A DNA stretch of 64,000 nt, from the IMG/VR virus record IMGVR_UViG_3300014598_000002. One strand, given 5' to 3'. A program made the position numbers and the translations under genes. The notes beneath the pieces are model-generated. The model saw only the letters and a list, made by a program, of their open reading frames with translations, had not been told where the DNA came from and searched no databases. Shown here piece after piece: positions 24,812-27,125 of this stretch. The first letter of the stretch is position 1; each line of letters opens with the position of its first letter. This DNA is from a virus (lineage: Duplodnaviria; Heunggongvirae; Uroviricota; Caudoviricetes).

Positions 24812-25372
24812 TAACCACTGCGGTGAGTAGCCAGCTCACCGCGTGCGTATCCGGCCCATAACCACTGTAGTGAGTAAAACGCCTGCCGTGACATCCGGTA
24901 TCCACTGTAGTGAGTAAAGTGGCGATTATCGACGTCGCTATCCACTGTAGGGAGTAAACAGGCGTTCATCCGCAGCAAACAACCACTATAGAGAGTGATG
25001 GAATGCGTTCTCCAGCGGGTATCCACTATGGAGAGTAAACCTTCACTGTTTTCAGCGGATATCTACTCACTACAGTGGTTAGCAAATCCGGCCAACCGAT
25101 TCTGCTCTCCACAGTGGATAGCCAATAACGACGGGAACAACGATAACCACTATAGAGAGTGGATTTAACAAGATACCCAGTGACCACTAACCTCGCAGCC
25201 CTTGTTTCATCTGGGTTTGTAACCACTAACATTTATTTCGTTATTTGAGCGCTACTACCTACAGTGGTTACTCTTCGGTTGTTGTTACTCACTACAGTGG
25301 ATAGCGGATTTCAGATAAACAAAAGGCTCACTACAGTGGATAGTGAGCCTTTCTACTCTCTACAGTGGTTGG
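24812..25372. repeat. iteron array (about 13 copies of about 19-bp CCACTGTAGTGAGTA-type repeats, roughly 41-bp phasing, both orientations); incA-like copy-control locus downstream of repA
   Basis: Repeats visible at 24858, 24899, 24938, 24980, 25020, 25062, 25104, 25145, 25250, 25287, 25325, 25357. Confidence 0.7.
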
Positions 25373-25373
25373 G

Positions 25374-26438
25374 CTATTTGCGAGCTTTTGCCTTGCGTAG
25401 CTCTTCGAGAATCGCCAGTTCTTCCTTGCTCAACATGACCATCTCACCGTCTTTTTCTTCAGGAACAACATCGATGATGTCCTCCTGATCATCACCAGGC
25501 AAGCTATCTTCCTGCTCTTCTGGTTCTTCCGGCGCAGCTTTAGCTGGTGGCAATGCCGGGCGTAACTTCGGCCGCCTATAGTGGATGATGAAGTAGACCG
25601 AGCTGCCGCGCTTCACTTCGGTGTAATCGAGATAGCCGATCTCCCGCAGCTGCTCCATCGCCTTCCTGACTGTCGCGTTCTGGGTAATGGTGCGGCTGGT
25701 TAAGTTAAGTCTGGCGCGTAAGCGAGCCAACGAGATTGGTGCCGGGTCAGGTGGCAAACTTTCGATGAAGGTGTAGAGCGCCTGCGCGGATTCTTTTCTG
25801 GAGAGTTCGTTAATTGCCCGGAGTTGCAGAAGAACCTTTTTGTCGAACTGGTAAAGTTCGAAAATCTTAGGATCAGCCTGCAGCGAGACCGTGTCGTTCT
25901 TTGTGCTGTACTTTGCTGTCTGCACAAGGTGCGTCACGTAATACTCATCAGAGCCTTTACTGCGGAATGAGATAGTGTTTGTGGCAATACGAGTTAGAGA
26001 ACTGTCCAGGCGCTTGCGTAACTTCGCGGACGATCTGGCCGTTGGTATGCCACAGAGCCTGACGAACTCGACGAACGGTAATGTGACAGTGTCGCCAACA
26101 ACCTTGTGCTTGGCGAACGCGTGGATGATGCCTACCCACGTTTTGAAGTCGTTATCCATATCCAGACGAACGCCGGAGATCCTTATGTCCTCGTACCCTT
26201 CGGCTTTGGCCAGAGACAGCTGTTTGAGTTCAGCAGAGGCGTCCATAGAGACCATTTGCCCCTTTCTGCCCCTGGCGGTCGATTTCAGCGTCGGAACGAA
26301 GAGACCAAGACGCATCAGAGCAACGGGCTGAACTGTGTTGTTGGTGTTAGGAACTAACGTAACAACTTCACCGGTCTTTTTGTCTGTTTCTGAGAATGCT
26401 TCAACGATCGCTATGTTTTTATTGCCGTTTTCGCTCAT
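25374..26438 (-). CDS. repA: plasmid replication initiator RepA (P1/RepFIB family)
   Basis: [13 protein letters not shown]...AKAEGY...RLDMD.DFKTW...YTFIESLP resembles P1 RepA as recalled. Flanked on both sides by iterons. Confidence 0.8.
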
Positions 26439-26481
26439 TCCAAGTATCTCTTTTTATTCGACCGCTTTGGTGGCCTTTACT

Positions 26482-26760
26482 GATTACAGTGGATAGTAGC
26501 ACTCATCGCAGCGGTTATCCTACCGCCTATAGTGGTTTTTCTACTCTCTACAGTGGTTGGTTTACTCTTCATAGTGGCTGATCTTCTCTCTATAGTGGAT
26601 ATCGATCCCCTCTAAAGCCATGTGGCACAACGGTTTGCGGGGTGCGGGGATCTTTTTGGGTCTTTGTGGGTCTCTTTGGTTCTCTTTGGGATCTGAATTA
26701 CTGGATCGGGCCTGTGTATAAAAATCAGGTAATTGCAAAACCAGCTATCACTCCCCTTCT
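26482..26760. repeat. origin-like module upstream of repA: 5 iterons (26482-26602) plus a GGATCT/GATC-rich tract and a DnaA-box-like TGTGTATAA
   Basis: Iterons TACTCTCTACAGTGGTTGG and others, then a tract rich in gggatct/gggtct repeats, then an AT-rich element. Confidence 0.65.
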
Positions 26761-26879
26761 GGGGATAATGTGTGGTCGAAACAAACACGCCTGAACGCAA
26801 AACTTCCAACATCTCTATGAATATCAGCCACCTGCGTAGAAAAACAGGCACTGAGTTATCCAGTAAAGACAATGTCTCC

Positions 26880-27125
26880 TACTCACTACAGTGGATACCC
26901 ACCACTCTCCAGAGAGGTTGTTTTGCTCTTCATAGCGGTTATTATGCTCTCTACAGAGGTTACTTTCCTCCCCATAGTGGATAGTAACCCCCTCTCAGGC
27001 CAGTAACCGCAACGGCTGGAGACGATCGGGGATCTCTTTTGATCTTCTGTAGGATCTCTCTGGGGATCTAATTATTGGATCGGTCCTGTGAATAATGGGT
27101 ATAAGTAAAACAGGCATTTGCAAAC
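26880..27125. repeat. second, duplicated origin-like module (4 iterons + GATC-rich tract + TGTGAATAA DnaA-like box)
   Basis: Iterons such as TACTCACTACAGTGGATAC at 26880-26990, followed by a ggatct-rich tract parallel to 26640-26760. Confidence 0.55.

Follow-up and report, generated by a model that had tools for sequence, protein, structure and literature searches.

Introduction

The closest described relatives of the replicon considered here are those of phage P1 and of the RepFIB plasmids. The annotated oriR of P1 (AF234172) comprises a DnaA site, five Dam sites, the five incC iterons and the promoter PrepA. In RepFIB plasmids, repA is flanked by an upstream iteron block associated with the origin and a downstream control block, the E-K repeats (PMC11983097), and a resident plasmid was displaced by the downstream block, not by the upstream origin-type block (PMC11983097). 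In both P1 and RepFIB, the same iterons constitute the origin and the repA operator, making the two roles hard to separate. This work describes the replicon of a 64-kb stretch of viral DNA (64,000 nucleotides of IMG/VR record IMGVR_UViG_3300014598_000002, hereafter the window), in which a single repA gene is preceded by two tandem origin modules, and in which evolution appears to have physically separated the origin and operator roles.

Judged by its homologies, the element is an SSU5-like phage-plasmid, and the region its plasmid-maintenance (plasmid-mode) replicon, of IncFIB(pHCM2) type within the RepFIB/P1 family. The window is collinear with phage SSU5 at 95-97% identity (window 85-24000, 24500-27498 and 39500-63995 correspond to SSU5 41.8-97.8 kb), and this homology outside the replicon bears out the suggestion, made in a preliminary description of this DNA, that the element is a phage-plasmid. 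The 3-kb replicon region is 99.9% identical to Enterobacter hormaechei plasmid pECL189-2 (near-identical plasmids of this type are assigned to IncFIB by MOB-suite), 98.1% to Raoultella plasmid NZ_CP082171, whose replicon type is IncFIB(pHCM2) (PMC8907287), 97.4% to Salmonella phage SSU5 and 80-83% to Escherichia coli phage Cyrano (pLF82), with its 742-bp intergenic region 95% identical to that of Yersinia pestis pFra. With matches of 95-99.9% to SSU5 and IncFIB plasmids, and a window collinear with SSU5, the replicon and the phage-plasmid status of its carrier are therefore already known. What appears to be new is the tandem, asymmetrically diverged origin as the conserved state of a large clade: searches of the full-text literature, which did not reach the primary pMT1 papers, found no description of a doubled origin in pMT1, pHCM2, SSU5, pESA3 or LPP-1.

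Results

One initiator gene with two upstream origin modules

Iteron arrays were called with a de novo weight matrix and checked by pattern search against 100 shuffles. A single 19-bp unit, with the core TAWCCACTGTAGWGAG, explains all the repeats. Allowing up to three mismatches, the pattern AWCCACTRTAGWGAG has 27 matches in the window against 6.4 +/- 2.5 in the shuffles, none of which reached 27, and 24 of the 27 fall in 24813-26982. The weight matrix resolves three arrays, with 13 iterons downstream of repA and 6 and 5 upstream. The gene and its upstream region are laid out as follows.

25374..26438, minus strand: repA, encoding a 354-aa Rep_3-type iteron-binding initiator (WH1 and WH2), identified from the open reading frame, Pfam and initiator homology.
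26480..26604, minus strand: module 1 iteron array, six iterons at 21-22 bp spacing in the orientation of repA (starts 26480, 26502, 26523, 26544, 26565, 26586), presumed repA operator; weight matrix and pattern search.
26517..26522, minus strand: candidate -10 element of the repA promoter, TAGGAT, aligned to the annotated -10 TAGGAT of P1 PrepA.
26605..26722, minus strand: module 1 origin core, partly degenerate; ori-core profile and P1 oriR alignment.
26723..26881, no strand: inter-module spacer, poorly conserved and varying in length by lineage; 67% identical to Cyrano, about neutral.
26882..26986, minus strand: module 2 iteron array, five slots at 21-23 bp spacing (starts 26882, 26905, 26926, 26947, 26968); weight matrix and pattern search.
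26990..27105, minus strand: module 2 origin core, of complete P1-oriR type, with two tandem DnaA boxes, six GATC sites and a GC-rich spacer; profile and P1 alignment.

The two modules share one plan. In each, a GC-rich spacer, a tract of GATC heptamers and DnaA-box matches lie on the side of the iteron array away from repA, and the two align at 74% identity; hence they are diverged paralogues rather than an assembly artefact. Module 1, proximal to repA (26480-26722), combines six iterons with a single DnaA box and a GATC tract that has partly decayed; module 2, distal to repA (26882-27105), has one iteron fewer, an extra DnaA box and six GATC sites. Both align with P1 oriR, and with the single origins of an IncFIB(K) plasmid and a Klebsiella SSU5-like phage-plasmid, with module 2 showing every feature of P1 oriR and module 1 lacking the first DnaA box.

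An nhmmer profile of the origin core (117 positions, built from five aligned origins, the window modules included) matches the window at the two modules only. The module 2 match (26990-27105, 108.6 bits) covers profile positions 1-116, and that of module 1 (26608-26722, 80 bits) positions 10-116. In module 2, the box TTATTCACA at 27095-27087 (minus strand) agrees with TTWTNCACA at 9/9 positions, and directly adjoins a second box, TTATACCCA, at 27104-27096 (minus strand), which agrees at 8/9. The sole box of module 1, TTATACACA at 26721-26713 (minus strand), also scores 9/9. The GATC sites of module 2 span 27024-27081 and form the densest such cluster of the window, with 6 in 66 bp against 0.29 expected (Poisson P = 6e-7). 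Only three GATC sites occur in the core of module 1, where three heptamers read AGAACC or AGACCC in place of AGATCC, and the intact sites of module 2 correspond to GGTC or GTTC.

The fourth iteron slot of module 2 is the weakest, in the window as in other lineages, and the CCACT core is substituted in three of its five iterons. The idea that module 2 iterons are more degenerate than those of module 1 was dropped, as the weight-matrix means are similar (about 21.9 and 20.6); in other lineages, distal iterons score higher than proximal ones. The TAGGAT at 26517-26522 is invariant in the window, SSU5, pFra, Cyrano and EcFMU. It was discarded as a general marker of proximal arrays, being found in the SSU5/Cyrano clade only, as was a CATAAT in module 2 as a promoter element, because Cyrano does not conserve it. 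Helical phasing between the modules was likewise set aside: the core-to-core distance is about 250-400 bp, with no constant phase.

The RepA initiator

RepA matches Pfam Rep3_N above the cut-off (7e-11), and Rep3_C at 4e-4, with 21.0 bits against a cut-off of 21.1. It is 99.4% identical to RepA of phage SSU5, 98.9% to that of Y. pestis, 91% to that of Cyrano, 78% to that of a Cronobacter plasmid, 62-66% to E. coli RepFIB RepA, 53% to IncFIB(K) RepA, and 47% to P1 RepA over residues 40-288 (E 1e-68); sequence searches of NCBIfam and PDB gave no match. Given 62-66% identity to RepFIB against 47% to P1, the initiator is therefore nearer RepFIB, with which it also has in common a C-terminal tail that P1 RepA is without.

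Within repA itself lies an iteron-like site, ATCCACTATAGGCGG (25572-25590, minus strand), which encodes the I-H-Y-R-R of a conserved IHYRRPK motif and has 13 nucleotides in common with the iteron starting at 26523 in the module 1 array. Several other lineages (L002, L118, L055 and L133) likewise have a site at this point of the gene.

Much of the preliminary description thus stands. It had named a minus-strand RepA in an oriR-repA-incA layout of P1 type, now supported by the P1 oriR alignment and the homology of RepA; repeats of one shared unit of about 19 bp, some 13 of them on the 3' side of the gene; and a GATC tract with a DnaA-like box in each upstream module. Its label of P1/RepFIB type is right as to family (Rep3_N and Rep3_C, 47% identity to P1, 62% to RepFIB), with the correction that RepA lies closer to RepFIB. 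Its counts of five upstream iterons next to repA and four in the second module each missed one weak copy.

Both modules are conserved among close relatives

Both modules are present in SSU5, pFra, Cyrano and one E. coli plasmid. Comparison of the window with Cyrano gives an identity of 0.88 in the iterons of module 1 and 0.86 in those of module 2, compared with 0.67 in the inter-module spacer, 0.71 in the distal flank and 0.625 at the four-fold degenerate sites of repA. Both modules exceed the spacer (Fisher tests, P = 4e-7 for module 1 and P = 3e-4 for module 2), and module 2 also exceeds the four-fold degenerate sites (P = 1e-5); hence both are under purifying selection. Lineage-specific iteron bases (GACC, TAGCGAG, AACCGCT) are common to the distal, proximal and downstream arrays, and therefore the same RepA reads all three.

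Spread of the doubled origin

In PLSDB, 335 records contain at least 80% of the intergenic region, against 339 records with a RepA at least 80% identical. A query that covers both modules is at least 80% present in 88 plasmids of complete E. coli genomes. No single-module variant of this RepA type is found in PLSDB or among the E. coli matches listed; nor, truncated contigs aside, is there a single-module deletion variant among related loci with RepA identity of at least 86%.

The wider survey comprised 119 loci with RepA relatives from GTDB genomes and IMG/VR, 113 of them assessable by iteron mapping. Two upstream iteron clusters are present in 77 of the 113, across more than 12 genera (Kluyvera, Yersinia, Buttiauxella, Franconibacter, Erwinia, Pantoea, Rahnella, Phytobacter, Entomohabitans, Scandinavium, Pseudescherichia, Cedecea and Xenorhabdus, together with a Tolumonas metagenome-assembled genome), with RepA identity falling to about 62-70%, and a Cronobacter plasmid from PLSDB (L133) has two as well. 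Profile search of the surveyed loci finds two origin cores upstream of repA in 66. P1, E. coli RepFIB and IncFIB(K) have one module only, as do the phage-plasmids of Klebsiella and E. coli whose RepA is different and a Pantoea group of 26 loci whose iteron differs. On this distribution, the tandem arrangement is ancestral to a whole replicon clade, not a sporadic duplication.

A consistent asymmetry between distal and proximal modules

The contrast seen in the window recurs across the clade. Among 52 distinct pairs, which stand for perhaps about ten independent lineages, GATC sites are more numerous in the distal core in 51 (mean 5.6, against 3.4 for the proximal core), and the profile score is higher for the distal core in 48. 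The proximal core usually begins at profile position 7-10, and thus without the first DnaA box, and lineage after lineage its central heptamers read AGAACC, AGACCC, AGTTCC or AGGCC. No proximal core can be detected in loci of Cronobacter (L133), Pantoea (L054), Franconibacter (L017) and Tolumonas (L044); proximal iterons remain there (3-9 copies), and the distal core is intact, with 4-5 iterons in five phased slots. No two-module locus without a distal core was found among the loci examined.

In the Franconibacter locus and the Tolumonas metagenome-assembled genome, the proximal array has grown to nine iterons with no recognisable origin core, giving it the appearance of a control array upstream of repA and not of an origin.

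In sister SSU5-like phage-plasmids with a different RepA and one origin, homology to the window resumes inside the distal core, beside an ASCH-like gene. This holds for two surveyed loci (L008 and L009) and 114 E. coli plasmids, which were compared with window 26990-27181 and have a RepA of 51% identity and different iterons. The resumption of homology within the distal core suggests that replicon cassettes have been exchanged, with a junction in this conserved element.

The downstream array

Two features were recorded immediately downstream of repA.

24809..25374, both strands: incA-like array of 13 iterons of 19 bp (starts 24809, 24856, 24896, 24936, 24977, 25017, 25066, 25105, 25141, 25255, 25288, 25327, 25356); weight matrix, and pattern search against shuffles.
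25321..25353, minus strand: terminator-like hairpin just past the repA stop codon, with the iteron at 25327 in its stem; consensus scan, a pattern match only.

The first six iterons (24809-25035) lie on the plus strand and the remainder are of mixed orientation, at spacings of 29-47 bp apart from a single gap of 114 bp. The last (25356-25374) adjoins the repA stop codon, like iteron 9 of P1 incA. Iteron number differs by whole units, with 14 in SSU5, 13 in the window and pFra, and 11 in Cyrano. By analogy with P1 incA and the E-K repeats of RepFIB (PMC11983097), we infer that this is a copy-control array. Since the stem of the putative terminator incorporates an iteron, binding of RepA could interfere with termination of transcription, and vice versa.

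A 37-bp block within the array that is not an iteron, ACCCAGTGACCACTAACCTCGCAGCCCTTGTTTCATC (25176-25212), has 100% identity across the window, SSU5, pFra and Cyrano, although the spacers beside it diverge. It contains a half-iteron, GTGACCACTAAC, which recurs 39 bp further on (25219-25230). An Rfam scan of the region for structured RNA gave no match at E <= 1.

Neighbouring genes and variable segments

The replicon lies between two genes.

24590-24805, plus strand: 71-aa open reading frame, annotated as P1 Cra-like.
27182-27826, plus strand: gene for a 214-aa protein, annotated as ASCH-domain in Cyrano, with no Pfam match here.

Both genes accompany the replicon as conserved neighbours throughout the SSU5-like elements. 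Beyond the downstream array, the genes are small, convergent and hypothetical, the cra-like reading frame being one of them. No ParA or ParB is annotated within 6 kb of the replicon in the near-identical plasmid or in SSU5.

Elsewhere, the element encodes a phage-type DNA adenine methyltransferase (44547-45140, plus strand; Pfam Dam PF05869, E 7e-36), which may be relevant to module 2, in whose core GATC sites are denser than anywhere else in the window. Two segments, 42155-43446 and 47436-49949, have no counterpart in SSU5. The latter contains a 689-aa open reading frame (47579-49648, minus strand) with weak matches to AAA_16 and ORC-CDC6-like families and a match to the PADLOC candidate defence family PDC-M36A (1e-13), and has the appearance of a variable hotspot that may harbour a defence gene.

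Discussion

Directly observed are the homologies and architecture of this replicon, together with the fact that both modules are conserved and differ from one another in a consistent way. By homology with P1 and RepFIB, initiation would proceed as RepA monomers fill the phased 19-bp iterons and host DnaA binds its boxes; the GATC-rich (Dam) heptamer tract next to the iterons would then open, with replication beginning there. The 13 downstream iterons would titrate RepA and handcuff the origin iterons, holding copy number down. Which module fires, where the repA promoter lies, and that handcuffing occurs, we infer.

The explanation we favour, at a probability of roughly 55%, is a division of labour, in which the distal module is the main P1-type origin and the proximal module is mainly the repA operator and an auxiliary site. 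An old tandem duplication would have been followed by subfunctionalisation of the two origin copies. Module 2, with its two DnaA boxes, 5-6 Dam sites and five phased iterons, would be the principal initiation site. Module 1 would be the autoregulatory operator of repA, because its full iteron array has been retained over the candidate repA promoter; its core, minus the first DnaA box and 2-3 Dam sites, would be decaying at different rates by lineage, leaving it at most an auxiliary, methylation-insensitive origin or a pairing partner in cis. This departs from the preliminary description in two respects. The second module had been suggested to be a spare origin or an extra copy-control site, whereas the tandem state is conserved across the clade with both modules under selection; and the comparative evidence favours the opposite labelling, as it is the distal, "second" module that keeps the complete canonical core, and the module next to repA that is the degenerate copy.

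Several points weigh against this division of labour. Firstly, and chiefly, the core of module 1 is no less conserved than that of module 2 within the SSU5/Cyrano clade (0.88, compared with 0.81, between the window and Cyrano), which argues for a role of module 1 beyond carrying a promoter. Secondly, the candidate promoter itself is problematic: TAGGAT is missing from proximal arrays outside the SSU5/Cyrano clade and is accompanied by no acceptable -35 element, and consensus scans of the repA strand found no convincing sigma-70 promoter in either module. Thirdly, the asymmetry is less heavily replicated than its counts imply, as the 52 distinct pairs represent far fewer independent lineages, and the origin profile was trained partly on both window modules, so that the scores of close relatives are not independent. 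Fourthly, one DnaA box suffices for P1 oriR, in which case the missing box does not disqualify module 1. Finally, the single origin adjoins repA in P1, RepFIB and IncFIB(K), and hence position alone favours module 1.

The best-surviving alternative, possible but in our view unlikely, is that both modules are active with one RepA, the distal one under Dam/SeqA sequestration and the GATC-poor proximal one escaping it, whether for redundancy or to provide two regimes. Such an arrangement would be consistent with the conservation of both cores and both iteron arrays above the neutral level, with a GATC asymmetry holding in 51 of 52 pairs and proximal heptamers made non-methylatable (AGAACC, AGACCC or AGTTCC) in many lineages, with the element having a phage-type Dam of its own, and with the copy number reported for Cyrano, about 5.5 per chromosome (PMC9928086). 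Several lineages, however, are without the proximal core and have kept the proximal iterons; therefore a second firing origin is not required by the architecture. Moreover, the GATC bases of the heptamers are critical for the function of P1 oriR, which counts against this alternative.

That module 1 is the sole origin, with module 2 as an accessory acting as a handcuffing partner in cis or a DnaA-loading enhancer, is essentially the reading of the preliminary description, and seems doubtful. Module 1 does sit where P1, RepFIB and IncFIB(K) have their single origin, and has the larger array (6 iterons to 5), an exact-consensus DnaA box and a core 88% conserved with respect to Cyrano. Yet a pure control element needs no pair of DnaA boxes, set of 5-6 Dam heptamers or GC-rich spacer, all of which module 2 keeps in every lineage. 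The distal array, moreover, always has five phased slots, unlike control arrays, whose iteron number changes. The lineages without a proximal core would also be left originless. The incompatibility results for RepFIB point the same way, since the upstream iteron block failed to displace a resident plasmid and the downstream block succeeded (PMC11983097).

It is very improbable that module 2 has no role in plasmid maintenance, as a decaying duplication relic, the relic of a lost replicon, or a lytic phage origin: there is indeed no second rep gene, and three of the five module 2 iterons carry a CCACT-core substitution, but this possibility is largely refuted by conservation far above neutral (P = 1e-5 against four-fold degenerate sites), by the presence of the module in virtually every relative, non-phage plasmids of Pantoea, Erwinia, Rahnella and Cronobacter among them, by iterons that co-vary with the RepA specificity of the lineage, and by a RepA/DnaA-type design not expected of an origin serving the phage's own polymerase and helicase.

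A bolder proposal, which we would rate as a long shot, is that the clade as a whole has a conserved dual origin, the two copies of which are kept different in methylation sensitivity, providing one RepA with two initiation regimes. If this were true, SeqA sequestration would tie the Dam-rich distal origin to the cell cycle but leave the Dam-poor proximal one untouched, giving regimes such as strict maintenance and runaway or induced replication, with the balance between them perhaps tuned by the element's own Dam. The clade so equipped would include pMT1/pFra of Y. pestis, the SSU5-like phage-plasmids, and plasmids of Cronobacter, Pantoea, Erwinia and Rahnella.

Under the favoured division of labour, the physical separation of origin and operator would make these replicons a natural system for studying the interplay of origin firing, autoregulation, handcuffing and Dam/SeqA control. 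They also show a conserved contrast in Dam sites between two origin modules of one initiator. The clade is medically relevant, encompassing Y. pestis pMT1/pFra, the pHCM2 replicon type, RepFIB-type plasmids of Cronobacter, and SSU5-like elements able to carry resistance genes. Curing cassettes and predictions of incompatibility must reckon with 24 predicted RepA sites, distributed over three arrays.

Comparison with known systems

A parallel for one initiator gene serving several origin-like elements in cis is R6K, with its alpha, beta and gamma origins. Unlike the modules of the window, these are not known to be tandem paralogues of a complete unit of DnaA boxes, heptamers and iterons, and the R6K initiator is only distantly related.

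P1 (oriR/incC-repA-incA) has the same succession of parts: DnaA boxes, GATC heptamers, five 19-bp iterons at 21-bp spacing, repA, and a downstream array beginning at the stop codon. It differs in having one origin module where the window replicon has two in tandem, in its iteron (GATGTGTGCTGGAGGG, compared with TAWCCACTGTAGWGAG in the window), and in the number of control iterons (9 compared with 13). The window RepA has extra N- and C-terminal segments, and while parA follows incA in P1, no par operon follows the control array of the window.

RepFIB (P307, F and pO157) supplies the closest characterised initiator, and shares the flanking iteron blocks (PMC11983097) and the type of origin core. 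Its iterons, however, are of the ATAAACTGTAGTCA type, and the E. coli RepFIB locus surveyed here (L132) has a single core and one upstream block of about five slots, followed by an iteron-free leader of ~170 bp.

The SSU5-like phage-plasmids of Klebsiella and E. coli have their replicon at the same locus, between a cra-like cluster and the ASCH-like gene, with an origin core 76-81% identical to module 2; those with a single origin, like IncFIB(K), differ in having one module, other iterons and a RepA of 51-53% identity. By contrast, the replicons of IncFIB(pHCM2), pMT1 (pFra), SSU5 and pLF82 (Cyrano) are identical in kind to that of the window, differing only in the number of control iterons (11-14) and in point differences, and both origin modules are present in all of them.

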